Made by a program: the position numbers and the translations under genes. This document shows, one piece after another, positions 471-13,723 of a stretch of 24,000 nt of DNA. The DNA comes from Methanocella sp. (lineage in GTDB: Archaea > Halobacteriota > Methanocellia > Methanocellales > Methanocellaceae). Position 1 is the stretch's first letter, and each line of letters opens with the position of its first letter. The stretch covers positions 6,902 to 30,901 of the forward strand of contig NZ_DATJPM010000029.1 in assembly GCF_035506375.1 (NCBI RefSeq), read 5' to 3'. Below the pieces are notes generated by a model, which did no database searches, was not told the origin of the DNA, and was given only the letters and a program-made list of their open reading frames with translations.

Positions 471-1982
471 TTGAGTGAACAGAACGATATTACACGGCTG
501 GCCGCAATGGCATTCATAGTACTTATCACTACGGTTGTGCTTATCAACGCTGCCGGTTCGATACTAAAGATAGATATCATAGGAAAAAGCACTGCCAGCG
601 GGCTGGTATATAAACCACCGCCCATTTATGTCAACCCGTCGATCATCGCGAACTTACCCACGCCGACGCCAACGCCGGCGCCCATCGTGATAAAACCGCC
701 AATTTATGTCAACCCGTCGATCATCGTGAAATTACCCACGCCCACGCCCACGCCCACCCCTGGGCCTATCGTGATAATACCGCCCATTTACATCAACCCG
801 TCGATCATCGCGAACTTACCCACGCCCACGCCCACCCCGGGACCGATACTCAGGCTCCCGCCGGGTGCCTTAGTTCCGAAGACATATATCCCGCCCAATA
901 TCATTCCAGGCAATATTGTACCGGGTAACACGGGCCAGGCCGGCGGCGACATTACGACGGTCACGCCGCTGCCTCCCGACACGCAGATACCCTCGCCCCG
1001 TCCCGGTGCAGTCGGGTCACCGGCGAGCCTGTGTCTGGATTCCATGGGGTATATCGCCAATAATGACAGCACTTTGACCGTGGACATCATCAGGCAGGGC
1101 GGCGACGGCATGGTATTTTACGAGATCGATGGGCTCAGGGGCAACATCGATCCCGCCGCTGCCGGGTGGTCGAACGTGAAGGGGGCCAGCGATTCGCCGG
1201 GCCAGACCATGGAGATGAAGATCTCGCTGAAGATACCGGCCGATAACAGTCTCGCGGGAAAATACTTCAATATCGTGCTCAAGCCCTTATCGCCCGAGAA
1301 TACGAAGGAGAGCGTGCCCTTCATGGCCACCATTACCATCCCCGACCTGAACGCGCCTCCGCAGCAGGCCACGGTCAGCTTCGATGCCGACGCGTACAGC
1401 CTGAACAAGGGCGGCTCGGCGCTGGTCACGATCCAGAGGACCGGGGGTAGCGGTGTCGTCTGGGTGAACGTCGTGGCCTACCCGGCCGCGGCGGACGGCA
1501 GCCCCGACCCGAACCCGAGCATGGTGAACTGCTGGTGGATGAACTCCTACAGCACGGCCCCGGGCGATAACATCCAGTTCGAGGTCCGCGCGAGCCAGGA
1601 CGTGAAGTCCGACGACGGCCTTGTGTTCCACCTGCCGCCCGCGGGCAGCACCGTGGACACGAGCGGTGACCTGGTCTATTACATGGACCTGACGCCCCTC
1701 GACAGCAGGCTGGCCGCAGCGGGAGAACCGTGGCGGGCTAAGGTGACGCTGCACAACGGCAACACGACCATCACGCCGATAACCACGACAGCGGCCGCAA
1801 AGACCGGCTCGCTATCGTCCGGCGGCTCGACCATCAACCAGGACATCAACACGATCGGAGGGAACAATGGCCAGGGCGATTCTGGCCAGGCAGTGGAGCT
1901 CAACCCGCAGCCTGAGCCGCCGGCGCCGGACTTCATAACGGGCATCGTGAACTGGTTCAAGGGATTGTTTGGGATGCACTGA
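471..1982 (+). CDS. Secreted/anchored cell-surface protein: N-terminal signal anchor, three proline-rich tandem repeats, two Calx-beta-like domains
   Basis: - TTG start is preceded by the SD-like TAGGAGGGG (456-464).
- The N-terminal hydrophobic helix is LAAMAFIVLITTVVLINAAG.
- The repeat is 3 x PPIY[VI]NPSII..LPTPTPTP..PI.
- The segments ATVSFDADAYSLNKGGSALVTIQRTGGSGVVWVNV and KYFNIVLKPL...ATITIPD resemble the start and end signatures of Calx-beta domains. Confidence 0.75.
   Translation: MSEQNDITRLAAMAFIVLITTVVLINAAGSILKIDIIGKSTASGLVYKPPPIYVNPSIIANLPTPTPTPAPIVIKPPIYVNPSIIVKLPTPTPTPTPGPIVIIPPIYINPSIIANLPTPTPTPGPILRLPPGALVPKTYIPPNIIPGNIVPGNTGQAGGDITTVTPLPPDTQIPSPRPGAVGSPASLCLDSMGYIANNDSTLTVDIIRQGGDGMVFYEIDGLRGNIDPAAAGWSNVKGASDSPGQTMEMKISLKIPADNSLAGKYFNIVLKPLSPENTKESVPFMATITIPDLNAPPQQATVSFDADAYSLNKGGSALVTIQRTGGSGVVWVNVVAYPAAADGSPDPNPSMVNCWWMNSYSTAPGDNIQFEVRASQDVKSDDGLVFHLPPAGSTVDTSGDLVYYMDLTPLDSRLAAAGEPWRAKVTLHNGNTTITPITTTAAAKTGSLSSGGSTINQDINTIGGNNGQGDSGQAVELNPQPEPPAPDFITGIVNWFKGLFGMH
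618..857 (+). repeat. In-frame tandem repeat, 3 copies (78, 84, 78 nt) encoding PPIYVNPSIIANLPTPTPTP(A/G)PIVI-like units
   Basis: The copies sit at 618-695, 696-779 and 780-857. The core ATTTATGTCAACCCGTCGATCATCG(C/T)GAA(C/A)TTACCCACGCC is nearly identical at the DNA level in all three. Confidence 0.9.
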
Positions 1983-2906: not shown

Positions 2907-3812
2907 TTACTTGCTCGACGTCGAGTTGTTCAGCAGGTCGGCGTAGAACAGCGGCCTTCCATACTGGGCCTGGCCGTACTCGGCTATCTTCTGCTGCGTC
3001 GGCTGGCTCGCCAGGTAGTCGATGAGCTTTTTCGCCATCGGGTAGTTGACCGACGGGTACTCCGTCTGGTTGACCGCGATCACGTCGTACTTGTTGATGA
3101 GCGTGACGGGGTCGTTCTCCACCAGTATGGTCAGGTTGAGGCTCTTCGACAGAGACTCGTAGGTGGCGATGTCGCTCAGCGTATAGGCCTGAAGCTGGTC
3201 CGCCATGCGCAGGGTATCGCCCATGCCCGAGCCGGTCGCCTTATACCAGGTGTTGGTCACGTTCGAAGGGACGGCCTTGAGGCTGGTCTTATTCCAGATA
3301 TCCCTGTTCTTTGTATCCGTGCCCGACGCGTCGACCCTCGCGACGAACGTCGACTTCGCCTGGGCGATCTTATCGTACGCCTGGGTGGCGTTCAGGCCCT
3401 TGATGCCCGCCGGATCGCTCGTGGGGCCGACGATCACGAAGAAGTTATGGGCGAACTGGGTCCTATTCCAGCCGTGGCCCTGGTTCATGAAGGTCGTCTC
3501 GGCCGCCGGGCTGTGCACGATGAGCACGTCCACGTCGCCGCTGGCGCCGTAGGCGATGGCCTGGCCGGAGCCCGCCGACAGGACCTGGACATTGACGTTA
3601 TTCTCCTTCTCGAAGTCGGGCAGGATGTAGTTGAGAAGGCCCGAGTCGTTCACGCTCGTGGTCGTCGCGAGCTTCAGCGTCTGTACGGGCGCCGTCGTAG
3701 GCACCGGCGTCGCCGTTGCGTTGCCGGCCTGGTTCGTGCAGCCGGACAGCGGCACTGCAATGGCTATAAAGACCATTGTTATGATCAAGAGTTTCAATAA
3801 TTTATTGGACAT
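2907..3812 (-). CDS. tupA: TupA-type tungstate (oxyanion) ABC transporter substrate-binding lipoprotein
   Basis: - Start is moved to the ATG at 3812 (MSNKLLKLLIITMVFIAIAVPLSGC), preceded by the SD-like GAAGAGG.
- The signal peptide ends in a lipobox-like LSGC.
- The mature part contains LKLATTTSVNDSGLLNYILPDFEK...SAGSGQAIAYGASGDVDVLIVHSPAAE...FVIVGPTSDPAGIKG.
- This closely matches the TTTS...DSGLL...GTG...GD.DV.LVH signature of TupA. Confidence 0.8.
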   Translation of the reverse strand: MSNKLLKLLIITMVFIAIAVPLSGCTNQAGNATATPVPTTAPVQTLKLATTTSVNDSGLLNYILPDFEKENNVNVQVLSAGSGQAIAYGASGDVDVLIVHSPAAETTFMNQGHGWNRTQFAHNFFVIVGPTSDPAGIKGLNATQAYDKIAQAKSTFVARVDASGTDTKNRDIWNKTSLKAVPSNVTNTWYKATGSGMGDTLRMADQLQAYTLSDIATYESLSKSLNLTILVENDPVTLINKYDVIAVNQTEYPSVNYPMAKKLIDYLASQPTQQKIAEYGQAQYGRPLFYADLLNNSTSSK

Positions 3813-3941
3813 AATAAACCTCTTCCATATACTACTTATGCAGAATAAATAAACGTAGCGTAAGTAAAAGCGATTGCCGGGATCGAAAAAACATCCCTGA
3901 GTTTTAGTGAACAGTTTCAATTTTCCGAAGCATTATTTGTC

Positions 3942-5405
3942 ATGGCTTATGGTAAATATTTAATAGGATGGGGGTTAAACATCGCTCCTATGGCTCCTGA
4001 AATGCAGCGCAAGCTGGCCCTGTTCGCCTGCCTGCTGCTCGTTCTCGCCGGCCTCCTGACCATGGTGCCGGACGCCTGGCTCCTCGGCCCGCAGGCCGCG
4101 TGCCACAGCTGCCACGAGGCGCAGTACCCGGCCAGCCACCTTCTTTACAGGACGAACTACATGGGCTATAACTCGCTGTGCTCCTTCGCCCCCTTCAGCA
4201 CGCTCATCCTCATCGGCACCGCCATGCTCATATTCCTCACGACGTTCCGCATCAAGTTCGAGCACTGGGGCCCGCAGTACCGCCTGATCGCGGGCATCGT
4301 GCTCTTAGCGTTCGCCGTGCTCACGGTGCTGCCGGCGCAGACTGAATACAGGGACCTGCTGGGATACAGCACGCTGGACCCGCTGGTGCCGGCGAGCACC
4401 ATTATCTTGCTGGCCCTGGCGGCCGCCGCCCTCATGGGCTATATCGTTTGCCCCTTCCTGATCATTATGAGATGCCGCTGCCCTGTCCTCGAAAAAGAGA
4501 TGGACTCGAATTACTCCCCAGACCGGGCGATCTTACGCTATTTGAAGATGGCCGCCACGGGAAAGCTGAGCGACGAGGACGTGCGCCGCCTGTACCGGTG
4601 CACGCTGTGCAACGGCTGCTGGATGGCCTGGTTTAACCGTAGCACGCGCGCCATGGCCGTGGGAAAAGGCATCGTGCCGGCCCACCTTGCCTCGATTAAA
4701 GGTTCAGTTGCCGCATACGGGAACCCCTATGGCATCGCGATTTCGGCGGACGGCGGGGAGCTGAAGGGCGCCGATACGGATACCGTGCTGTTCAAGGGCT
4801 GTACGGCGCGCTTCAAGGCCCCGGAGATACTCGCGGCCGCACGGGAATTGCTCGATAAAAAAGGCATTAAGTATAAACTCCTGGAAGGCGAGACCTGCTG
4901 CGGATATACGCTATATAATTTAGGCGACATCGACGCAGGAAATGCCGCCGTGGACAGAAATATCAAGGCCTTCCGGGACACGGGCGTGAAGCGCATCATA
5001 ACTATATGCCCCGGCTGCTACTCGGCCTTCAATAAATACTATAATGGGCGTGGCGGGTTCGACGTCGATGTCGCCCTGGCCATGGACCTGCTCAAGGATA
5101 TGAAGGTGCCGGCAAAGGGCGTGACGATACACGACCCGTGCCACGCCAAAGAGAAGAGCGAGACGGCCCACGGCATGCTCATGGGTGCCAGGGAAGACGG
5201 GACCGGCGCCTGCTGCGGGGCCGGCGGCGGCGTAATGTCCTTCGACCGGATGCTTGCCGGCGCGAGGGCCGGGAGGATCCTGGAGGAGAACGAGAGCACC
5301 GTCGTTACCTATTGCCCGTTCTGCTACCTCAACCTTTCGAGGGCCGGCGAAAAAAGGGTCGCCGACCTGTACGTTGTCCTGGCTCAGGGTGGCTTAAATG
5401 GTTGA
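3942..5405 (+). CDS. Membrane-anchored (about 4 TM) Fe-S protein with two CCG cysteine-rich domains (HdrD/DsrK/GlpC-like) and an N-terminal CXXCH
   Basis: - Hydrophobic helices occupy aa 25-42, 83-103, 115-131 and 150-175.
- CHSCH is at aa 54-58 (nt 4101-4115), in the predicted outside loop.
- The C-terminal half carries CTLCNGC, then the CCG-domain motifs FKGCTARF...ETCCGY...ICPGC and HDPCHAKE...GACCGAGGG...YCPFC.
- The start is uncertain. ATG 3990 (MAPEMQRK) is an alternative, preceded by the TATA-like AAATATTTAATA at 3953-3964. Confidence 0.75.
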   Translation: MAYGKYLIGWGLNIAPMAPEMQRKLALFACLLLVLAGLLTMVPDAWLLGPQAACHSCHEAQYPASHLLYRTNYMGYNSLCSFAPFSTLILIGTAMLIFLTTFRIKFEHWGPQYRLIAGIVLLAFAVLTVLPAQTEYRDLLGYSTLDPLVPASTIILLALAAAALMGYIVCPFLIIMRCRCPVLEKEMDSNYSPDRAILRYLKMAATGKLSDEDVRRLYRCTLCNGCWMAWFNRSTRAMAVGKGIVPAHLASIKGSVAAYGNPYGIAISADGGELKGADTDTVLFKGCTARFKAPEILAAARELLDKKGIKYKLLEGETCCGYTLYNLGDIDAGNAAVDRNIKAFRDTGVKRIITICPGCYSAFNKYYNGRGGFDVDVALAMDLLKDMKVPAKGVTIHDPCHAKEKSETAHGMLMGAREDGTGACCGAGGGVMSFDRMLAGARAGRILEENESTVVTYCPFCYLNLSRAGEKRVADLYVVLAQGGLNG

Positions 5406-6078
5406 TGTGCCCTTTGAAGGCCTCACGGTCGTGGAGCAATTCCACAGCCGGAAAAATAAGGTCTACCTGGTCGAGCGGGGCGGATGGCGCCTCGTCTTAA
5501 AGGTTTACGAGAACGGCCGCTGCAAGAACGAGGCCAGGACGCTTCGGGCGGCTCGAAGGGCAGGGATCGCGGTACCCGAAGTCGTGGACGTGGGCGATAA
5601 CGCGCTCCTCCTTGAGCTCATACCCGGCAGGTCCGTCAACGATTATCTGAATACGCCGTCCATGGGCGAAAAAGCGCTTGGCGTGGCCGCCTGGCTGGCC
5701 GCTTTTCACGGGGCTTTCCGCTCGGGCGATGAAGTGCTGGTCAAGTCGGACGCGATCTTTAAGAACTTCCTCGTCTCCGACCGCATCTATGGCATCGACT
5801 TCGAGCTGTCCCACCGGGGCCGGCCCGAGGAGGACGTGGGCGAGGCGCTCGCCTATTTACTCGATACCGAGCCCATGTTCTCGGAGGAAAAATATGCACT
5901 CGGCCGGCGATTCATCGGTCGCTACGAGGGGGATTCCGGGATAGCGCTAAAGAATATCGACGCCTTCGTCGCTAATTCCCTGAGACAGGCCGCAGAGTTC
6001 CGTCCGGGCCAGAGGGAGCTGTTATTAAAAAAGGCCCGGGATATCGAAGATTCGAGGCCTTTTACGCCTCGCCGATAA
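5398..6078 (+). CDS. Small atypical protein kinase, Bud32/RIO/LPS-kinase-like
   Basis: - The ATG overlaps the upstream stop (ATGGTTGA, 5398-5405).
- It has a kinase-like N-lobe (VYLVERGGWRLVLKVY...NEARTLRAARRAGIAVPEVVDV...LLLELIPG).
- The catalytic-loop-like SDAIFKNFLV has D and N spaced as in HRDxxxxN.
- IDFELS sits in place of DFG.
- Subfamily assignment is uncertain. Confidence 0.55.
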   Translation: MVDVPFEGLTVVEQFHSRKNKVYLVERGGWRLVLKVYENGRCKNEARTLRAARRAGIAVPEVVDVGDNALLLELIPGRSVNDYLNTPSMGEKALGVAAWLAAFHGAFRSGDEVLVKSDAIFKNFLVSDRIYGIDFELSHRGRPEEDVGEALAYLLDTEPMFSEEKYALGRRFIGRYEGDSGIALKNIDAFVANSLRQAAEFRPGQRELLLKKARDIEDSRPFTPRR

Positions 6079-7168
6079 CGAGCGGTATGTACATGTCGTC
6101 GGGCAGCAGAGTGCCGTGGTTGCCGCCGCCGCCCGTCAGGTTATGGCACCCGTGGTCGGCGTAAATGACCACGACCGTGCCATTATCCAGGCTTTTCAGG
6201 ACCTCGCCGACTTCGACATCGGCCGTTTTCACCGAGGCCAGCCCTTCGGGCGAATAGGGGCCATATTCGTGCATTTCCAGGTCAGTATCCTTGTAGTGGA
6301 CGACCATAAAGTCGGCGCCTGCCCGGTATTCGTCGATGGCCGCCGCGGTGACCTCGTCGTCAGCGGAGCCGTCGCCGTTCTCGTCGAGGGCGAACACCGT
6401 ATCGTTCACGGCTACGGGCGGGCTGTTGCCGTCGACCCAGACGGCCTTGAGCCCTTTGCGCTCGAGGATGTCGAAGACCGTGTCATTATAAGGCAGGTAA
6501 GACCGGAAATCCCCCCTGGAGAGGTTCGGCGCCAGCCCGGTGGCCATGGCCTTCGCGTTATTCTGGGTGATGGATGGGTAGACGCATACAGCCTTTACCG
6601 GCTCTCCCAGAGATGATATATTGCTGATCAGGCCCCTCTGCCGGGCGTCCTGATAGCGCTCGTAGCCGAAAGCGTCCAGATAGAACAGGACGACCCTGCT
6701 CGCCTTTTCGTGGATCAGGTCGTCCCTGCCCCCGGCGTCCAGGGCATAAAGGATAGACGGCGCGACGTCCAGCGTGGACACTCCGGGCTTATCGGCAAGC
6801 GTAACGTTAATGTCCGTGGGCATAGCCCTTTTGCCGGCATAGTAGACGCTGCCGTTGGGCTCAACAAGCATGGGGATGTCCTTGCTCGCCGCCGAGGCGG
6901 CATCTGTCCAGTTATATACCGTGCCATTATACGATATGGCCGTGACCGGATATACGCCGTAGTAAGCGAGGAATATTTCGAGCGGTATGCCGGTGACGCC
7001 GTCGTAGGTCTTCGCGTCGTTCGCCAGCTTTTCATAGAGCGAGCTATTGACGCTCTTCGACGAATCGCCGTTGATTGCGAACGACCACTCCCTGCCCGCA
7101 GTAATACAGCCCGAAAGGGCGATAAAAAAAAGAATGAGCAGGACTGGGAGAATTTTTTTAACGTCCAT
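6062..7168 (-). CDS. Exported lipoprotein of the nucleotide pyrophosphatase/phosphodiesterase (alkaline phosphatase superfamily) type, with an N-terminal accessory domain
   Basis: - The signal peptide has a lipobox (FIALSGC).
- NPP-type motifs are present: VVLFYLDAFGYERY, YPSITQNNAKAMATGLAP (nucleophile Thr context), HYKDTDLEMHEYGP (D..H..GP) and VIYADHGCHN.
- The N-terminal 130 aa or so contain GVTGIPLEIFLAYYGV, resembling the module repeated in the upstream genes.
- Its ATG at 7168 abuts the stop of the upstream gene (7169-7171). Confidence 0.7.
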   Translation of the reverse strand: MDVKKILPVLLILFFIALSGCITAGREWSFAINGDSSKSVNSSLYEKLANDAKTYDGVTGIPLEIFLAYYGVYPVTAISYNGTVYNWTDAASAASKDIPMLVEPNGSVYYAGKRAMPTDINVTLADKPGVSTLDVAPSILYALDAGGRDDLIHEKASRVVLFYLDAFGYERYQDARQRGLISNISSLGEPVKAVCVYPSITQNNAKAMATGLAPNLSRGDFRSYLPYNDTVFDILERKGLKAVWVDGNSPPVAVNDTVFALDENGDGSADDEVTAAAIDEYRAGADFMVVHYKDTDLEMHEYGPYSPEGLASVKTADVEVGEVLKSLDNGTVVVIYADHGCHNLTGGGGNHGTLLPDDMYIPLVIGEA

Positions 7169-8035
7169 TTACTCCGCCGTTATCGCTTCCACGCCCATCC
7201 AGTTTGCCCGGGCCTTATCGCTCGACGCTATCTTGATCTTGCCCTGGTCCCGGGTGACGAGCAGCCCGGCCGTCTCATCCCGGGTATAGGTCTTTTCGAC
7301 GACGGGGCCCTTAATGGTCACGTTCGAGTAGCCCGCGAATCCTTCCTTCGCCAGCAGATTATCAAGGCGGATGCCCGGCACGACGAAGGCCGACTGGTAC
7401 TGGTAATCGCGGTCCGTTCCCGCGTATCCGGTCGTCTTGCTGCTGTAGACCAGGCTGTCCATGCCATCATCGATCATTTGACCGTAGGTCAGCTCCTTCC
7501 CGTTGAGCTGTATGGAGTCGCCGGAATTGCCGCCCACCACGACGATGGCCCGGATGTTCTTTGCCCACACGTTCACGGGCATGTTGGGGCCGAGCACGCG
7601 AATGGAGTATTCCATGGGCACGAATATCGTCTCGTTGCTCATCTCGCTCTTATTTAGTGTCATCTCATAGTCGTCCGCATAGAAGACCAGCCGGTCGAAG
7701 CCGGTCACGCCGTGCGCCTGCAGGAAATCATAGACGGAGACCCCCTTCGATGGGACGCCTACGCCGTCCTGCTGCTTTAGCGTGGTGATCTCGATCTGCC
7801 TGAGCTTGAAGATGTCGTCGATGACCACGTATTCGTCCTGCGGCGTATCTCCGGTCAGCAGCAGCGTGCCATTCATGTTGACGTCGGGCGCGACCACGCT
7901 GCCGTGGCCCTCGTGGCACTGCTTGCAGTCGAGCTGCTGGGGCTGCGTGCTGGACGTATACGCGAAGGTCGCCGCCGCGGCCAAGACAAGCCCGATGGCC
8001 AGGCCGGCGATCAGGAACTTATACGCTTTTTCCAT
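7169..8035 (-). CDS. N-terminally anchored CXXCH protein with two sulfite-oxidase/YedY-like modules
   Basis: - There is one N-terminal TM helix (FLIAGLAIGLVLAAAATFAY).
- It is followed by DCKQCHEGHG (CKQCH = nt 7913-7927, minus strand). These are the only two Cys in the 288-aa protein.
- Two modules follow: GVPSKGVSVYDFLQAHGV...YADDYEMTL...IRVLGPNMPVNVWAKNIRAIVV, and VPGIRLDNLLAKEGF... Confidence 0.7.
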   Translation of the reverse strand: MEKAYKFLIAGLAIGLVLAAAATFAYTSSTQPQQLDCKQCHEGHGSVVAPDVNMNGTLLLTGDTPQDEYVVIDDIFKLRQIEITTLKQQDGVGVPSKGVSVYDFLQAHGVTGFDRLVFYADDYEMTLNKSEMSNETIFVPMEYSIRVLGPNMPVNVWAKNIRAIVVVGGNSGDSIQLNGKELTYGQMIDDGMDSLVYSSKTTGYAGTDRDYQYQSAFVVPGIRLDNLLAKEGFAGYSNVTIKGPVVEKTYTRDETAGLLVTRDQGKIKIASSDKARANWMGVEAITAE

Positions 8036-8041
8036 GGCTGA

Positions 8042-8977
8042 TCACGATAGCTCTATGGTGGCGAGCTTATTGACCCACGTGGAGAACTGCTGCGAGGGCA
8101 GGATGTCCCGTAGCGTGCCGTTCTGCTGGTCGATGGCGATGATGGCATCGTTGTCGGCCCGGATGTCGGTCATGTTGACCGTCTTATTGTAGCCGTCGGA
8201 CGCGATGAACCTGACCTTCGTGGCAGTGGTGTTCGCCGCGTAGTCGTCCAGGATCTTATTCAGGGACGGACCGGAAACGCTCAGCGTCGTGTTGTTTTTA
8301 AAGGGCACCGTCAGGGACTTGACCGGGTACGACTGGAGCTTCGACATCTTCAGCCCGATGGCGTTCGCGGTGACGCCGGTGATGTTCAGCACGAACGGCT
8401 CTGTGCTGGAGCCGGCGGCCTGGGTGAGCTCGATCTTGACCGGCACCTTCATCCACATCTCGCCCGGCTCGTCGGGCACGACTATGCGGATGGAGTTCTT
8501 GTTGATGTTATCGGTGAGCGCCGTGCCGTTCTCCTTCAGGCCGAGGATGGACTTTTCGAGCTGGGCCTTCGTGTAGACCTTCATGTACCCGTCGGACGCG
8601 GAGATCTTGAAGTTATAGTCCCCGGCGGGCAGGCCGGCCTTGTTGATAATATCCATCATGGGCACGCCCACGTAATCGCTTGTCGTCTCGGTGCCTACAG
8701 AGTTGATCATGACGACCCCGTCTTTCTCGACCAAGCCCATGGCCTTAATATCGGCATACGCAAGCGTCACGTTCGTGTTTCCGCCAACTACCTGGAGCTT
8801 ATAGTTCGGCACGTCCGTCAGGCCCGCCTTGAGGCCCGAATTATCGCCGCCGGCCGCGCTCGGGGCCGCCGTGGTCGGTGTCGCAGTATTAGTGTTCGTG
8901 CTCGTAGTGCAGCCGCTCAGAGCCGCGGCTACCAGAACAACCGTAAGAATCAATAGTATCGATGCATTATACCTCAT
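8042..8977 (-). CDS. Lipoprotein with two sulfite-oxidase/YedY-like modules (cysteine-free)
   Basis: - SD GGGGTGA lies upstream of the ATG at 8977.
- The signal peptide has a lipobox (AAALSGC) followed by a T/N/P-rich linker.
- Module 1 is YVGVPMMDIINKAGL...SASDGYMKVY...IRIVVPDEPGEMWMKVPVKIEL.
- Module 2 is GPSLNKILDDYA...IASDGYNKTV...FSTWVNKLATIEL. Confidence 0.7.
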   Translation of the reverse strand: MRYNASILLILTVVLVAAALSGCTTSTNTNTATPTTAAPSAAGGDNSGLKAGLTDVPNYKLQVVGGNTNVTLAYADIKAMGLVEKDGVVMINSVGTETTSDYVGVPMMDIINKAGLPAGDYNFKISASDGYMKVYTKAQLEKSILGLKENGTALTDNINKNSIRIVVPDEPGEMWMKVPVKIELTQAAGSSTEPFVLNITGVTANAIGLKMSKLQSYPVKSLTVPFKNNTTLSVSGPSLNKILDDYAANTTATKVRFIASDGYNKTVNMTDIRADNDAIIAIDQQNGTLRDILPSQQFSTWVNKLATIELS

Positions 8978-9067: not shown

Positions 9068-9877
9068 TCATGGAAAAGTGAACGACGCCGGCATGGTCAG
9101 GAAGTGGAGCCAGAGGTTAAGCGCCAGAACGGCCACGATGGCGACGGCCGTAGCGCTAATCACGGCATCCGTCGCCCGGAACGGCCTGCTCCGCGTGAAT
9201 GTGCGCGCCCGGCTGTAGCCGAACGCCCGGCTCTCCATGGAGATGACCAGCACGTCCACCTTGGACAGCGCCGAGACGATCAGCGGCATGAGCGTAAACC
9301 GTACGATTTTTATCACGCTCTTTATCCCTCCGCTGTCGATCTCCAGGCCCCGGGCCGCCTGGGCATTTCTCACGGTGCCGGCCTCAGATTCGAAGACCGG
9401 CAGGAAACGTATGGCCGTGACTATCATGAACCCGAAGCGGTAGGGCAGGCCCGCCTTCATGAGCGCGTAGGCCAGCTCGTTCGGCTCGGTGGTGACGATG
9501 AAGATGGCGCTGCCCAGGATGATGGTGAGGAAGCGGAAGGCGATGAGAAGCCCGTTGTAGACTCCCATGGTCGTGATGTTCACGGTGAAAAGCACGAGGG
9601 GTACGCTGACGATGAGGCCGCCTCCGCCCGTGAACAGCGCCTGGACGGCGACGATGAGCAGGGCGAAGGAGATGAAATATTTAGACGTGACCAGCGAGGC
9701 CAGCGTCCTGGACCGGAGCCATGCGGCGATCGCGAGCATGGCCAGGAAACACAGCAGCTCGGCCGTCAGGCTGCTGAACATAAAGATGGATACGCTGTAG
9801 GCGACGAGCACCAGCAGGCGTGTCAACGGGTTCAGCCGGTGTATAAAAGAAGAGCCCCCCTCGTAACGGAGCCTCAT
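9068..9877 (-). CDS. ecfT: ECF transporter transmembrane (T) component, EcfT/CbiQ family
   Basis: - The ATG overlaps the stop of the ATPase gene (9874-9877).
- It is a polytopic membrane protein.
- It opens with the N-terminal IHRLNPLTRLLVLV motif typical of CbiQ/EcfT.
- Coupling-helix-like motifs AIRFLPVFESEAGTVRNAQAARGLE are present. Confidence 0.8.
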   Translation of the reverse strand: MRLRYEGGSSFIHRLNPLTRLLVLVAYSVSIFMFSSLTAELLCFLAMLAIAAWLRSRTLASLVTSKYFISFALLIVAVQALFTGGGGLIVSVPLVLFTVNITTMGVYNGLLIAFRFLTIILGSAIFIVTTEPNELAYALMKAGLPYRFGFMIVTAIRFLPVFESEAGTVRNAQAARGLEIDSGGIKSVIKIVRFTLMPLIVSALSKVDVLVISMESRAFGYSRARTFTRSRPFRATDAVISATAVAIVAVLALNLWLHFLTMPASFTFP

Positions 9878-11385
9878 TTCCTGCAGCCCTCCGGCACATA
9901 GTCCTTCATTCCTGATTCCTCTATGCGCCGCATTGCCGCTTCCGGCTTATCGTCCACCAGGACGATGCCGTCCTTGAGGAGCACGATGCGGTCGCAGTAC
10001 CTGTAGACCATATCCATGTCGTGCGAGACCAGCACGAGGGCCTTGCCCCCGTCCCTCAGCCTTCGCAGCTCGCGGCACATGCGTGTCACGTTGGCGTAGT
10101 CCTGCCCGACGAAGGGCTCGTCCATGATGATGAGCGTGGGGTCGTGCGGCAGGACCGAGCATAAGTTCAGGCGCCGCTTTTCGCCGAAACTGATGCCCAG
10201 CGGATGCTTATCCCTGTATTTGGCCAGGCCGTACTTCTCTAGGACGGGATCGACGAGATGGGCGGCCTCATCCTCTCCCGTGCCGAAGTTCCTTAAGGCG
10301 AAGGCGGCCTCGGCGTAGACGGTCCTCTCGAATATCTGGTGGTTGGGGTTCTGGAAAATGAAGCCCGAGCGCCGGGCGATATCGGACGTCCGGGACTTTC
10401 CCACGTCCAGTCCCGTGACCGAAACGCTTCCCGAGTCGAATTTGTGGAGCCCCATGAGCACGTTGAGGAAGGTGGTCTTGCCGGAGCCGTTCGGCCCGAT
10501 GATGCCCACGATCTCCGAATTATTCACTTGCATGTCGATGCCGTGGAGCGCCTCCCTGCCGTCGTACGACGCGCGGAGGCCTTTAACCTCCACAACTGGC
10601 GTCTTTTTCGTCGTGCCGCCGTCCGCCGCGAAGGCCGGGCAATCGAGGCCAGGCAGCCTGACGCCGATAGAGTTTAGCTGCTCCCGGTATCTGCCAACGA
10701 CCTCCCGGGGCTCTCCATCCATGACGATCCGGCCTGCCTCCATGACGACCAGCCTGTCCGCAAGCCCCATGAGCCTGTCGAGCTTATGCTCGATAACGAT
10801 GATGGTCATTCCCGTATTCTCTTTAAGGCGCTCGATAGCAGAGAAGACGGTCGCTGTGCTGGACGGGTCAAGGTTCGAGGTGGGCTCGTCGAGGATCAGC
10901 GCCCGGGGATGCATGGCCAGCAAGGAAGCGATGGCCACCCGCTGCTTCTCTCCACCGGAAAGCTCGTGGATCTCCCGGCCCTTCAGGTATGAGGCCCCGA
11001 CAAGGGCCAGAGACTCATCGACCCTGCGGTTCACTTCATCCGCGCTCAGCAGAAGATTCTCGGGCCCGAACGACACCTCGTCCCGCACGTTCAGCGTGCA
11101 TAGCTGAGACTCGGGGTCCTGCTGCACGATGGCCACGAGGGGGGCGATGTCGGACAGTTCCACGTCCGTCGTGCGCTTGCCATCCACCTCGATAGAGCCC
11201 TCCATCCGGCCCTCGAATACGTGGGGGATGTACCCGCCCATGGCCAGGGCCAGTGTGGACTTGCCGCACCCTGATGGCCCCGTGATGGCCAGGAACTGCC
11301 CTTCAGGTATCTCCAGGCTGATGCCGTCCAGCGCTTTCCTGTCAGAGTTAAAAAAAGAGAACGACAGGCCCCTGATCGAGATCAT
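9874..11385 (-). CDS. ecfA: ECF transporter fused double ATPase (EcfA-EcfA')
   Basis: - Two ABC cassettes lie in one 503-aa protein.
- Cassette 1 has Walker A GPSGCGKST, signature LSGGEKQRV and Walker B LILDEPTSNLD.
- Cassette 2 has Walker A GPNGSGKTT, the degenerate signature ISFGEKRRL and Walker B LIIMDEPFVGQD. Confidence 0.9.
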   Translation of the reverse strand: MISIRGLSFSFFNSDRKALDGISLEIPEGQFLAITGPSGCGKSTLALAMGGYIPHVFEGRMEGSIEVDGKRTTDVELSDIAPLVAIVQQDPESQLCTLNVRDEVSFGPENLLLSADEVNRRVDESLALVGASYLKGREIHELSGGEKQRVAIASLLAMHPRALILDEPTSNLDPSSTATVFSAIERLKENTGMTIIVIEHKLDRLMGLADRLVVMEAGRIVMDGEPREVVGRYREQLNSIGVRLPGLDCPAFAADGGTTKKTPVVEVKGLRASYDGREALHGIDMQVNNSEIVGIIGPNGSGKTTFLNVLMGLHKFDSGSVSVTGLDVGKSRTSDIARRSGFIFQNPNHQIFERTVYAEAAFALRNFGTGEDEAAHLVDPVLEKYGLAKYRDKHPLGISFGEKRRLNLCSVLPHDPTLIIMDEPFVGQDYANVTRMCRELRRLRDGGKALVLVSHDMDMVYRYCDRIVLLKDGIVLVDDKPEAAMRRIEESGMKDYVPEGCRK

Positions 11386-11389
11386 AAGG

Positions 11390-11827
11390 TCAGGATACGT
11401 CCAGCTCGGTGGCCTGCTCTACCCACATGCCTCCCGCGAAGCCCCTGGCGATGACGCGGACCGTGTCGTTGTCGTTGATGAGGATGACGTTATCGTTAGC
11501 GGTCACGTTGGCAAGGTCGAACGTCTGGGCGTACCCGTCGGAGGCCCTGATGGTGACGTTCGTAGCGCCGCTCTTCACTCCGGCGTCGGAGAGCACTGTC
11601 CTCAGCGGGACGCCCGTATAGTTCGCCTCCGGCAGGTGCGTGACCTTGCCGTCAAGCTTCGCCGTGATGGTCACGAACCTGTCCTTATAGCTGTTCAGGT
11701 CGTACGTCCCGGGCTTATCTACCTGTCCCTTAACGTTAAAGCTCAGCTTCTTCTCAGTCGTGCATCCAAGCGACATAGCCATAATGACCATCACGATAAA
11801 TACAATAGCGATTCCTGATCTCCTCAT
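11390..11827 (-). CDS. Small lipoprotein consisting of a single sulfite-oxidase/YedY-like module (cysteine-free)
   Basis: The signal peptide has a lipobox (AMSLGC). The module is FVTITAKLDGKVTHLPEANYTGVPLRTVLSDAGV...RASDGYAQTF...VRVIARGFAGGMWV. By eye it is roughly half identical to the C-terminal domain of the upstream S-component protein. Confidence 0.7.
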   Translation of the reverse strand: MRRSGIAIVFIVMVIMAMSLGCTTEKKLSFNVKGQVDKPGTYDLNSYKDRFVTITAKLDGKVTHLPEANYTGVPLRTVLSDAGVKSGATNVTIRASDGYAQTFDLANVTANDNVILINDNDTVRVIARGFAGGMWVEQATELDVS

Positions 11828-11836
11828 AGTAAAGCC

Positions 11837-12862
11837 TCAATACACTTTTATCATTTTCATCTTATCGACCCATAATTGACCCGGATACCCGCGGGCGACC
11901 AGCCTCAGATGGCCGTCCTCCTGGACGATGATGAGGTCGTCGTTGTCCATGATATCGGAAACGTTGAACGACTGCGTATAGCCGTCGGAGCCGACCACGT
12001 CCAGGGTCTTCGCGCCGGCGCCTACCCGGGCGTCCCGGAGCACGTACCGCACGGGCAGCCCCGTGTAGTTCTGGGCCGGCAGGTGAGTGACGGCCCCGTC
12101 GAGCTTCGCGTTGATGGTCACGAACTCCGACGCGTAGGACGGCTGATAATAGTCCTTCGGGGACGCCACTGCGCCGGTCACGGTGAACTGGAGCGGATCG
12201 CCCTTTAGCCGGACCAGGGCAAAATAATATATCGCCGAGAACACGATGAGCAGCGCCAGGATGACGGCGACGACCCTCGTCGCCGTGAACCCGAAGCCCT
12301 TTTTCTCGGGCTTTTTCTCCCGGCGCACGATGCCCGCTTCCTCGAGATTGTCCATGATGCCCACGCTGAAGTATCCCGCGAACACCGCCCCTGAAACGAT
12401 GGAAAGCAGGCCGACCGCGGCTAACAGGAATATGTTCGGGTAGACGTTGAACAGAAGCTGGCTCGCGAGCACGTAGGCGAAGGAGCCCAGGATACCGCCG
12501 GTAAAGTAAGAGAGCTTCGGGTACTTCTTAAACGGCCAGAAGCCGATCTCCACGAAAATGCCCTCCAGGAGCGAGATGAACACGACGAAGATGCCATGGG
12601 AGCTCCCGGAGAGGAATTCTACTAAGCCCTTGAGAAGCCCTCCCCCGACGCCGGCGCCGGGTTTTTTTGTGATGGCCACCATCAGGACGAGCCAGAAGAT
12701 GTGCAGGCCGGCCACTATCTCGCCGGCGCCGTACGGCACGCCTGCAAGGCGGTTGATGACGTTAGCCAGGTACTGCACGTACGTCGACATCACGCCGCCC
12801 AGAGACGCCAGGATGGCGACCGTGAGCAGGTCCCTGGTGGTGAAATAGTATTTTGGCGCCAT
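11837..12862 (-). CDS. ECF-type S (substrate-capture) component fused via an extra TM helix to a C-terminal sulfite-oxidase/YedY-like module
   Basis: - aa 1-170 form about six hydrophobic helices of S-component size, in the first position of an ecfA/ecfT operon.
- aa 171-189 are a K/R/E-rich linker (DNLEEAGIVRREKKPEKKG).
- aa 190-217 are an additional TM helix.
- aa 221-341 are the module (FVTINAKLDGAVTHLPAQNYTGLPVRYVLRDARV...GSDGYTQSF...LRLVARGYPGQLWV).
- The S-component subfamily and substrate are not identifiable by eye. Confidence 0.6.
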   Translation of the reverse strand: MAPKYYFTTRDLLTVAILASLGGVMSTYVQYLANVINRLAGVPYGAGEIVAGLHIFWLVLMVAITKKPGAGVGGGLLKGLVEFLSGSSHGIFVVFISLLEGIFVEIGFWPFKKYPKLSYFTGGILGSFAYVLASQLLFNVYPNIFLLAAVGLLSIVSGAVFAGYFSVGIMDNLEEAGIVRREKKPEKKGFGFTATRVVAVILALLIVFSAIYYFALVRLKGDPLQFTVTGAVASPKDYYQPSYASEFVTINAKLDGAVTHLPAQNYTGLPVRYVLRDARVGAGAKTLDVVGSDGYTQSFNVSDIMDNDDLIIVQEDGHLRLVARGYPGQLWVDKMKMIKVY

Positions 12863-12952: not shown

Positions 12953-13723
12953 ATGGAAGAATGGCTTTTGTGGGCGGGCGCGGCGGCGTTCTGTGTCTTT
13001 GCCCTATCGACGCTCCTGCTGAAAAAGGGTAAGATACCATCGTATATTTCCTTCGCCGGCTGCCTGCTCGTCATCGGCGCGCTTTTATTGCGCTGGTATA
13101 CGCTGGGCCGGCCCCCGTGGGCGACTCTCTACGAGACGGCCGCGTTGCTGGCGCTGGCTACGGGCGTCGCTTCCGCTTACTGCTATCGCCTTAAGGAAAC
13201 GCCCGCGTTGTACCTTCCGCTGGCCGCCGTGGCCATCGTATTGCTGGTATTTTCAGCCATGTCCTGGGAAGCCAACCCGTCGCTCTCGCCGGCGCTTGAG
13301 AGCGGCTGGCTGCTCATCCACGTGCCCGTCGTCATCCTGGCGTACGCCGCCTTATCCGTAGCGTCCATCGCCTCCGGCGCCCTCATCGCGCTGAAAGCAC
13401 TGGGCAGGGGCGACGATAGAACAATAAAAAGGCTCGACTCGATCGCTTACAATCTAATTATCGCGGGGCTGGCATTGCTTGTACTGGGCATCGTCATGGG
13501 CGCAATGTGGGCGAAAGCGGCCTGGGGCGCCTACTGGTCATGGGACCCCAAGGAGACCTGGTCGCTCATCACGGCCTTAGTCTATGCGGCTTACCCTCTC
13601 GCCCGGCGGGCGGGCATGAAGCCCGAGGACTCGGCGTTCATCGCGCTACTGGGGCTCCTGGCGATACTTTTCACTTACCTGGGCGTATCCTACCTGATAC
13701 CGGGCCTGCACAGCTACGCTTAA
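12953..13723 (+). CDS. ccsA: CcsA/ResC/CcmC-family heme-handling (cytochrome c assembly) membrane protein with WWD domain
   Basis: - Start is moved to the ATG at 12953 (MEEWLLWAG). The track ORF begins at a non-ATG codon at 12899.
- It is a polytopic membrane protein.
- The motif WAKAAWGAYWSWDPKETWSLI (nt 13508-13555 for W...E) matches the W-rich WGxxWxWDPKE heme-binding WWD signature.
- Conserved His candidates are in LLIHVPV and in the C-terminal GLHSYA. Confidence 0.8.
   Translation: MEEWLLWAGAAAFCVFALSTLLLKKGKIPSYISFAGCLLVIGALLLRWYTLGRPPWATLYETAALLALATGVASAYCYRLKETPALYLPLAAVAIVLLVFSAMSWEANPSLSPALESGWLLIHVPVVILAYAALSVASIASGALIALKALGRGDDRTIKRLDSIAYNLIIAGLALLVLGIVMGAMWAKAAWGAYWSWDPKETWSLITALVYAAYPLARRAGMKPEDSAFIALLGLLAILFTYLGVSYLIPGLHSYA

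Follow-up and report, generated by a model that had tools for sequence, protein, structure and literature searches.

The window analysed here, 24,000 nucleotides of a Methanocella sp. genome (contig NZ_DATJPM010000029.1, positions 6,902 to 30,901 of the forward strand), encodes a fusion protein in which four predicted transmembrane (TM) helices, with an outward-facing CxxCH motif between the first two, precede an iron-sulfur (Fe-S) part with two CCG domains. Judged by its sequence, the protein is an integral membrane Fe-S oxidoreductase of the HdrB/HdrD (CCG) kind and is specific to the Methanocellaceae. For the outward CxxCH the leading but unproven reading is that it binds heme c, attached by a CcsA-like protein from the same gene cluster, and that the heme links cytoplasmic thiol/disulfide chemistry to a partner outside; we put the probability of this at roughly one in three (about 0.35).

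The open reading frame (ORF) runs from 3942 to 5405 on the + strand and gives 487 residues if read from 3942 (ORF list and sequence). Residue numbers throughout are those of this 487-residue version, counted from the upstream ATG at 3942, except where a 471-residue model is named. The true start is almost certainly the ATG at 3990, with a product of 471 residues, because the methionine encoded there is the equivalent start in 36 of 37 orthologues and because the GC fraction at third codon positions (GC3) drops to 0.31 over the 48 nucleotides upstream (3942-3989) against 0.81 over the coding sequence. A start at 3942 is rejected on the same two counts, and that upstream ATG is probably non-coding. 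An earlier interpretation made from the letters alone (hereafter the sequence-only reading) had taken the frame from 3942 and named 3990 as the alternative; the alternative prevails, and this is the sole correction to what had been observed in the sequence, the rest being confirmed.

Full-length relatives (about 470 residues, 52-85% identity) come only from Methanocella or Methanocellaceae genomes and metagenomes, the named ones including M. conradii, M. arvoryzae, strain CWC-04 and strain MCL-LM. Homologues of about 300 residues without the membrane part are known from Methanobacterium and from strain CWC-04, where the short form is a second paralogue. A full-text literature search found no mention of the locus tags Mtc_0078, Mtc_0079, Mtc_0081 and LRC329 in article main texts.

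The iron-sulfur part

Pfam recognizes PF02754 twice in the protein (E 3.4e-24; 85.2 bits against a cutoff of 20.6) and nothing else. The coding sequence and the features of its Fe-S part are:

3990..5405, + strand: whole coding sequence of the fusion of four TM helices and CCG domains, 471 residues from the corrected start ATG 3990
4470..4484, + strand: R-C-R-C180-P181, directly after TM4, with C180-P181 invariant
4599..4619, + strand: CTLCNGC with C220, C223 and C226, the only ferredoxin-type CxxCxxC in the sequence, invariant in long and short homologues
4785..5030, + strand: CCG domain 1 with C287, C319-C320, C356 and C359 (CX31CCX35CXXC); best PF02754 stretch at residues 282-363; aligned with HdrB residues 4-85
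5124..5351, + strand: CCG domain 2 with C400, C424-C425, C458 and C461; second PF02754 stretch; aligned with HdrB residues 192-247; TfrB-type match over residues 277-470

All ten CCG cysteines are present and none varies among the long and short homologues, and both the cysteine positions and the paired Pfam matches bear out the CTLCNGC and two CCG domains that the sequence-only reading had seen. Its assignment of the C-terminal part to the HdrB/HdrD-type double-CCG proteins is likewise upheld, by Pfam, NCBIfam, Foldseek and alignment to HdrB. The full-length AlphaFold2 (AF2) model has a mean predicted local distance difference test score (pLDDT) of 82.5, with 88-96 over most of the CCG region; its best Foldseek match in the PDB is Mycobacterium smegmatis EtfD (9ojn, E 1.5e-11), and HdrB chains 8rwn_B, 8rvy_b, 5odc_B and 7bkb_B are also matched, together with LutA (E 2.5e-07 to 6.4e-06). 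By sequence the closest solved relatives are HdrB subunits. NCBIfam returns TfrB, LdhH, HdrB, GlpC and other models, every one scoring far under its curated cutoff: TfrB 92.8 against 385 (E 1.8e-26), HdrB TIGR03288 41.6 against 345.15 and HdrB NF041780 31.4 against 450. By these comparisons the protein belongs in the CCG superfamily, where it has a full complement of HdrB-like ligands but falls outside every named equivalog. Proteins of this superfamily, among them HdrB, HdrD, GlpC, TfrB, LutA and SdhE, typically bind non-cubane [4Fe-4S] clusters at their CCG motifs. Membership of HdrD, TfrB or GlpC was considered and rejected, since the curated scores lie far under the cutoffs and the second ferredoxin motif is missing; database entries for these proteins carry the names 'fumarate reductase (CoM/CoB) subunit B' and 'HdrD', neither of which is backed by sequence.

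With HdrD and HdrB the protein shares the two CCG domains with their ten cysteines and a cytoplasmic Fe-S catalytic domain. HdrD, however, has two CxxCxxCxxxCP motifs before the CCG domains, whereas here there is one CxxCxxC only, which qualifies the HdrD likeness named in the sequence-only reading. No CP follows C220-x2-C223-x2-C226, and the protein has no Fer4-type Pfam match. A distinct HdrD candidate with two [4Fe-4S] motifs, MCP_0282, is known in M. paludicola (PMC3146512). TfrB is the best NCBIfam match, and several relatives' database entries bear its name, but its N-terminal [2Fe-2S] part and two [4Fe-4S] parts are absent from the fusion protein; in the loci examined no TfrA gene lies near the fusion gene.

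The short soluble homologues begin with C-x-P and continue with CxLCNxC. The long form has lost the cysteine of this C-x-P, and 11 residues upstream has instead the invariant C180-P181. Since C180-P181 thus replaces the lost C-x-P, we infer that C180 would serve, with C220, C223 and C226, as the fourth ligand of a single [4Fe-4S] cluster placed where TM4 ends, on the inner surface of the membrane. In Methanobacterium oryzae (locus L001, 4919-7581) the short CCG gene stands third in the order nitroreductase, MarR, short CCG gene, metallo-β-lactamase/ODP-fold protein, an arrangement that looks like a redox-stress operon.

The membrane module and its outward loop

Kyte-Doolittle hydropathy places four hydrophobic segments within the first 176 residues, at about residues 25-42, 85-102, 115-131 and 152-176, in agreement with the four N-terminal helices of the sequence-only reading. 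The module is made up as follows:

4014..4067, + strand: TM1, residues 25-42, preceded by a cytoplasmic MxxxxRK tail (hydropathy, lysine plus arginine (K+R) statistics, helix in AF2 models)
4077..4148, + strand: CHxCH insertion of about 21-24 residues in the outward loop of repeat 1, with invariant C54-H55-x-C57-H58, P63 and H66 (hhalign gap)
4155..4202, + strand: hairpin motif 1, N-Y-M-G-Y-N-S-L-C80-S-F-A-P-F-S-T, at the outer end of TM2 (aligned with NLLGYxSxCxFxPxST of small 2-TM proteins)
4197..4247, + strand: TM2, residues 86-102 (hydropathy, AF2)
4248..4283, + strand: cytoplasmic loop 2, F-R-x-K-F-E-x-W-G-x-x-Y-R, K/R-rich, with F106, W109 and Y113 invariant and R114 nearly so
4284..4334, + strand: TM3, residues 115-131, the start of repeat 2 (hydropathy, AF2, hhalign)
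4353..4400, + strand: hairpin motif 2, D-L-L-G-Y-S-T-L-D146-P-L-V-P-A-S-T (alignment)
4395..4469, + strand: TM4, residues 152-176, with a kink at G166...C170-P171 near the cytoplasmic leaflet (hydropathy)

The motif itself, CHSCH at residues 54-58 (nucleotides 4101-4115), lies between TM1 and TM2, in the first loop where it had been placed. As CH[STVG]CH it is kept in 37 of 37 aligned orthologues and in the genes of loci L015-L018, that is in all 41 sequences covering the first loop, and no orthologue without a CXXCH came to light. It is unchanged down to 52% identity while neighbouring loop residues vary; given the composition of this protein, about 0.014 C..CH motifs per sequence would be expected by chance (arithmetic from residue counts). 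H66, C80, C180-P181 and many outer-loop residues are also invariant in the aligned orthologues, with variable residues between them; within hairpin motif 1 the invariant positions are N72, G75, Y76, S78, C80, P84 and S86. The equivalent of C80 in repeat 2 is Asp (D146) in most orthologues and Cys in a subset. In TM4, C170 is nearly invariant and P171 invariant.

On which side of the membrane is the motif? Mean K+R counts over 37 full-length orthologues, interpreted by the positive-inside rule, are 1.95 in the 8 residues of the N-terminal tail, 4.49 in the 12 of loop 2 and 2.68 in the 16 after TM4, all predicted to be inside, against 1.03 in the 43 residues of loop 1 and 0.81 in the 20 of loop 3, predicted to be outside. 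These counts, and the fact that a cytoplasmic Fe-S domain follows an even number of TM helices, predict that the N-terminus and the Fe-S domain face the cytoplasm and that loops 1 and 3 face outward. The outside placement of the CXXCH loop and the inside placement of the C-terminal domain, both proposed earlier, thus hold as predictions. Histidines occur only at positions 55, 58, 66, 108, 248, 397, 401 and 410 and none is within a TM helix, so that an earlier caveat, the want of any TM histidine and of an evident electron path across the membrane, still stands. AF2 gives the module alone a pLDDT of 68.8, and the CHxCH loop falls below 50 both there and in the full-length model; the helix of TM4 is broken at residues 150-154 of the 471-residue model.

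Two other views of this region were discarded. TM1 is not a cleaved signal peptide or the lead-in to a lipobox, for no lipobox precedes C54, and TM1 is itself conserved as one helix of the hairpin unit described next. An extracytoplasmic Fe-S site of Rieske or mitoNEET type on CHxCH is rejected on its spacing and because assembly of Fe-S clusters is not known to take place outside the cell.

The module (residues 1-190) matches nothing in Pfam or NCBIfam, and a Foldseek search of it against the PDB found no match, the best E value being 0.88. A profile built from 16 orthologues and run against 1.84 billion representative proteins picked out nothing beyond the Methanocella family, fragments of it, and small proteins of 61-113 residues (weak, E 2e-07 to 1e-03) that align with both halves of the module. 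The unit common to all is a TM helix, (L/V)P, a short loop N-L-L-G-Y-x-S-x-C-x-[FW]-x-P-x-S-T and a second TM helix. Profile-profile comparison by hhalign matches repeat 1 with repeat 2 (96.9%, E 1.8e-10) and matches the small family with repeat 1 (99.1%) and repeat 2 (98.6%), from which the N-terminal module is seen to be, at the level of sequence profiles, a tandem duplication of a two-TM 'Cys-loop hairpin'. CHxCH and the residues on to H66 form a 21-residue insertion in repeat 1, visible as an hhalign gap both against repeat 2 and against the small family; by this comparison the insertion was gained in the Methanocellaceae lineage. Derivation of the module from proteins like HdrE/NarI, DsrM, DsbB, VKOR or CcdA finds no support from Pfam, NCBIfam, profile or Foldseek comparisons, and none of these searches identified it as a known family with a non-redox function.

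The free-standing hairpins, of which 115 were detected (55-166 residues), are all annotated 'hypothetical', and those scanned have no Pfam match. They come from Promethearchaeota, Thorarchaeota, Thermoproteota, Firestonebacteria and unassigned metagenome contigs. They resemble the module in that each of its halves aligns with them, and differ from it in standing alone, in having a single Cys without a CxxCH and, in one subfamily, in being accompanied by a flavodoxin instead of a CCG protein. In that subfamily the order MarR, flavodoxin, hairpin recurs in seven metagenome loci (L014, L025, L027, L030, L031, L032 and L034), for example:

L014, 3018-4243: operon of MarR, short-chain flavodoxin and a hairpin of about 72 residues

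A flavodoxin is directly upstream of the hairpin in three further loci (L008, L024 and L035). The pairing appears to be old, since the Promethearchaeota flavodoxin-hairpin pair is only 37-40% identical to the others. The other small members, including three further contexts, have only uninformative or unannotated neighbours. The MarR-flavodoxin-hairpin operons suggest that the hairpin acts as the membrane partner of a small cytoplasmic redox protein. Here, then, is a membrane module that belongs to no database family, is free-standing in diverse uncultured archaea and bacteria, and has been duplicated and fused in the present protein; its apparent recurrence as a membrane partner of small cytoplasmic redox proteins is a lead that does not depend on how the question of heme is answered.

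How does this compare with known membrane-bound CCG enzymes? In HdrDE the anchor is a separate protein, HdrE, a NarI-like b-type cytochrome with TM histidines, whereas the anchor here is fused, has no TM histidine and has an unrelated fold; the lack of TM histidines and of any fold match confirms that the membrane part differs from the HdrE or DsrM partner, as had been noted. HdrE is reported to be absent from M. paludicola and RC-I (PMC3146512), and HdrE and VhoC are reported to be absent from 4/4 Methanocellales genomes surveyed (PMC8351635). Mycobacterial EtfD (the Rv0338c family, 9ojn) is closer in plan, with a TM domain, ferredoxin-type Fe-S clusters and two CCG domains in one polypeptide; its five TM helices hold heme b via His78 and His241 and provide a menaquinone site, and it has two cubane [4Fe-4S] clusters and two CCG sites, one of which holds a linear [3Fe-4S] cluster (PMC13083937). 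The fusion protein, by contrast, has four TM helices of other origin, no TM histidine, one CxxCxxC and an outward CxxCH, and global superposition on EtfD, its top Foldseek match, is poor (root-mean-square deviation 19 Å, TMq 0.55). The suggestion that this is a single-polypeptide analogue of HdrED and DsrMK thus stands as regards a fused chain with a different membrane module, but the architecture is not new. EtfD being a single-chain HdrDE-like enzyme, fusion of TM and CCG parts in one chain was already known; new here are the membrane module and the reduced ferredoxin part.

The gene cluster and the case for heme c

Eight loci were compared for synteny: the window, L003, L004, L005 and L015-L018. 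After the fusion gene all eight have the same convergent cluster, at 42-75% protein identity, comprising a phosphodiesterase-like protein, a 288-residue TM-anchored protein, Oxidored_molyb-like proteins, an ECF transporter and a CcsA-like gene, the last present in 4/4 loci long enough to show it. In the window these genes, and a kinase-like gene that precedes them, are:

5398..6078, + strand: Bud32/RIO/APH-like small kinase, its ATG overlapping the stop of the fusion gene; after the fusion gene in 5/8 loci
6062-7168, - strand: TM-anchored member of the phosphodiesterase/alkaline-phosphatase superfamily, conserved in 8/8 loci and lying there between the fusion and 288-residue genes
7169..8035, - strand: 288-residue protein with an N-terminal TM anchor, CxxCH(A)EGHG and a further domain; no Pfam match
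8042-8977, 9068-11385, 11390-11827 and 11837-12862, - strand: ECF transporter and Oxidored_molyb-like proteins (CbiQ-like T, double ATPase A-A', PF09819 S)
12953..13723, + strand: CcsA-like WWD-domain protein, 256 residues, at the far end of the cluster (PF01578, E 9.3e-38)

The 288-residue and fusion proteins are the only genuine genes with a conserved CxxCH in the eight loci, and in all eight the CxxCH(A)EGHG of the former comes directly after its anchor. In a 2015 survey by Kletzin et al. (PMC4429474) the 288-residue protein (Mtc_0081, LRC329) already figures among the candidate monoheme cytochromes c, as 'cluster 47', and its further domain was modelled there on the molybdopterin subunit of sulfite dehydrogenase. 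The 288-residue protein may be the extracytoplasmic partner of the fusion protein.

The CcsA-like protein, listed as an ORF from 12899, probably starts at ATG 12953, since its orthologues have 256-258 residues. Closely related sequences are found nowhere outside the Methanocella lineage, on contigs that also hold the fusion gene; beyond them come CcsB proteins of bacteria, about 40% identical. Alignment of the CcsA-like protein to Helicobacter hepaticus CcsBA (7s9y) and bacterial CcsA shows the WWD motif intact, with both external histidines, P-His1 (WLLxHV) and P-His2 (GLHSY), in place; at the position of TM-His2 (YLHxR in bacteria) 8/8 Methanocella-lineage sequences have L, I, G, V or S. In CcsBA heme cannot reach the external WWD site from the inside without the TM histidines, and once there it is ligated by the P-His residues (PMC6299221). 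Loss of TM-His2 would then fit an organism that does not export heme of its own, as the TM histidines are what carries heme outward in CcsBA. Johnson et al. (PMC8351635) found bacterioferritin in 4/4 Methanocellales genomes that lack heme synthesis and suggested use of exogenous heme, and only one maturation homologue is encoded in Methanocella spp. (Kletzin et al., PMC4429474).

Heme c is favoured, then, because in each of two neighbouring outward motifs the second Cys is directly followed by an invariant His and because the linked WWD protein keeps exactly the external heme ligands. The idea of a fusion with a potential heme c site thus holds for the distinct membrane module and for the conserved outward CxxCH, heme c itself being putative. 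The likeness to the c-type cytochromes of System II (CcsBA/ResBC) lies in an outward conserved CxxCH with a CcsA-like WWD protein, complete in P-His1 and P-His2, nearby; the differences are that the fusion protein has just a loop of about 25 residues in place of a cytochrome c fold and that the CcsA-like protein has neither TM-His2 nor a CcsB.

A good deal tells against heme c. Some PF01578 proteins (HemX, YpjD) are not cytochrome c synthases, and the CcsA-like protein scores 182.2 bits with the System II model TIGR03144, just under the cutoff of 187.6. It contains no CcsB part, and no ResB/CcsB, ResA or CcdA gene lies beside it in the cluster loci. The segment that would have to hold the heme is the same short loop with an AF2 pLDDT below 50, and from an outer heme to the inner Fe-S cluster, an estimated 20-30 Å or so, there is no TM His or other obvious relay. 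The ancestral hairpin has no CxxCH and works without it, from which the module's basic function would be independent of heme. The shared gene order, seen within one archaeal family, may reflect common descent and not a functional tie. Finally, AhbABCD, CcmCF and CcdA are each found in 0/4 Methanocellales genomes (Johnson et al., PMC8351635).

Several of these same facts suit a different view, in which C54, H55, C57, H58 and H66, with C80 and D/C146 from the hairpin caps, bind a metal such as Zn, Cu, Fe or Ni in a structural or sensory site, the module serving to anchor and position the CCG enzyme or to report an outside signal to that enzyme and the kinase, with no electron transfer across the membrane. 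The ligand set is dense (three Cys and three His, all invariant), the position symmetric to C80 alternates between Asp and Cys, both of them metal ligands, and the CxxCH(A)EGH of the 288-residue neighbour is similarly rich in ligands. The want of an electron path through the membrane and of heme synthesis and a Ccm system (PMC8351635) speaks for such a site, the kinase-like gene is translationally coupled in 5/8 loci, and 4347 of 4410 archaeal single CxxCH motifs were rejected as heme sites in an earlier survey (PMC4429474). We consider a metal site somewhat unlikely, though only a little less probable than heme c. The invariant His after the second Cys in both neighbours is the hallmark of heme c and would be badly placed to share the metal of that Cys, the conserved CcsA-like WWD protein would be left without a role, and the motif matches no metal-binding family known to Pfam or NCBIfam.

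Some observations on the surroundings may be added. The kinase gene shows VLK, D-x4-N and DFE motifs by eye and is absent in L015-L017. The S component of the ECF transporter is fused to an extracytoplasmic Oxidored_molyb-like domain that recurs in two further proteins and gives weak, short NCBIfam matches to 'GEGP motif-containing diheme protein'; the transporter might carry heme or another tetrapyrrole, but this is guesswork. The gene for a TupA-like tungstate-binding protein (PBP_like_2; 2907-3920, - strand) is transcribed away from the fusion gene, and its listed TTG start is probably too far upstream; M. arvoryzae, strain CWC-04 and strain MCL-LM have the same neighbour and M. conradii does not. 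Further off, 471-1982 (+ strand) encodes a 503-residue protein with an N-terminal TM helix, three near-identical repeats of P-P-I-Y-V-N-P-S-I-I-A-N-L-P-T-P-T-P-T-P and no Pfam match, probably a surface protein.

Other possible roles for the module, and a proposed mechanism

The distribution of cysteines raises the thought of a transmembrane thiol-disulfide relay, an analogue of DsbD/CcdA, in which reducing equivalents would pass from the CCG site to C170 (and perhaps C178), on to C80 and thence to C54-x-x-C57, the outward dithiol keeping external cysteines reduced, whether those of the 288-residue protein's CxxCH before heme attachment or those of oxidant-damaged proteins. The CCG sites of HdrB are disulfide reductases, and all ten of the cysteines are present here; conserved cysteines are found on both membrane faces. 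MarR operons with flavoproteins are typical of oxidant and electrophile responses, and relatives of both halves of the fusion are found in MarR-controlled operons with flavoproteins. CcdA is lacking (0/4 Methanocellales; PMC8351635) despite proteins with outward CxxC(H) and a CcsA-like gene. With DsbD/CcdA and DsbB/VKOR the module has in common a polytopic form, conserved cysteines among which is an outward CxxC, and coupling to a reductant in the cytoplasm. Such a relay is nonetheless decidedly unlikely, for there is no sequence or fold similarity to any of these (in Foldseek, the best E of 0.88 given above) and no Cys pair in the membrane core: C170 is the only conserved intramembrane Cys, far from C80, and the free-standing hairpins have one Cys. 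The invariant H55, H58 and H66 have no counterpart in those proteins and would go unexplained, and C180 is more likely an Fe-S ligand.

Conservation on the inner side suggests something else again, namely a site beside the [4Fe-4S] cluster for a lipophilic carrier (quinone- or phenazine-like) or an electrophile, the outward CHxCH being merely structural. The CCG proteins GlpC, SdhE and LutA pass electrons to membrane quinones, and the anchors of heme-free fumarate reductases offer an analogy. The cytoplasmic loop and the end of TM4 carry the invariant aromatic or basic residues F106, W109, Y113, R114 (nearly so), R177 and R179, and the pairing of hairpin relatives with flavodoxins in MarR operons recalls quinone or electrophile detoxification. 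EtfD, too, passes electrons to quinone (PMC13083937). The strongest conservation in the module, however, is on the outer face, not the inner. We know of no quinone or methanophenazine in Methanocella, which counts against a carrier site, as does the absence of VhoC and HdrE homologues from the surveyed Methanocellales. All told we regard such a site as highly unlikely, and to explanations other than those named we allow only a slim chance.

To return to heme c, how might such a protein work? The outward CxxCH would carry covalently bound heme c, put there by the clustered CcsA-like WWD protein from heme that is scavenged and not self-made. On the inner side the single [4Fe-4S] cluster of C180, C220, C223 and C226 would feed, or be fed by, the two CCG clusters. 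Cytoplasmic thiol/disulfide chemistry would in this way be joined to an extracytoplasmic redox partner, likely the 288-residue CxxCH protein. Since no visible cofactor accounts for the crossing of the membrane, this would have to be by slow long-range transfer or some further relay. The purpose would be the handling of redox or oxidative stress rather than core energy conservation.

A bolder version, which we think unlikely, has the Methanocellaceae running a minimal, self-contained cytochrome c system on scavenged heme. The CcsA-like protein, without the TM histidine of the heme channel, would load external heme onto two membrane proteins, and the outward heme c of the fusion protein would be wired to an HdrB/HdrD-type disulfide reductase by way of the duplicated two-TM hairpin.

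The Methanocellales are major producers of methane in rice fields, are unusually tolerant of oxygen and are classed as methanogens without cytochromes. Were the outward motif to hold heme or another cofactor, it would open to such a methanogen a new route by which electrons or redox signals pass between cell and environment. With heme it would also mean covalent use of heme without heme synthesis, surprising in a group thought to lack cytochromes. In the bolder version there would be a direct redox link between the outside and the cytoplasmic thiol/disulfide pool, and the substrates met on the outside might be extracellular electron donors or acceptors, or the oxidants of the rice rhizosphere.

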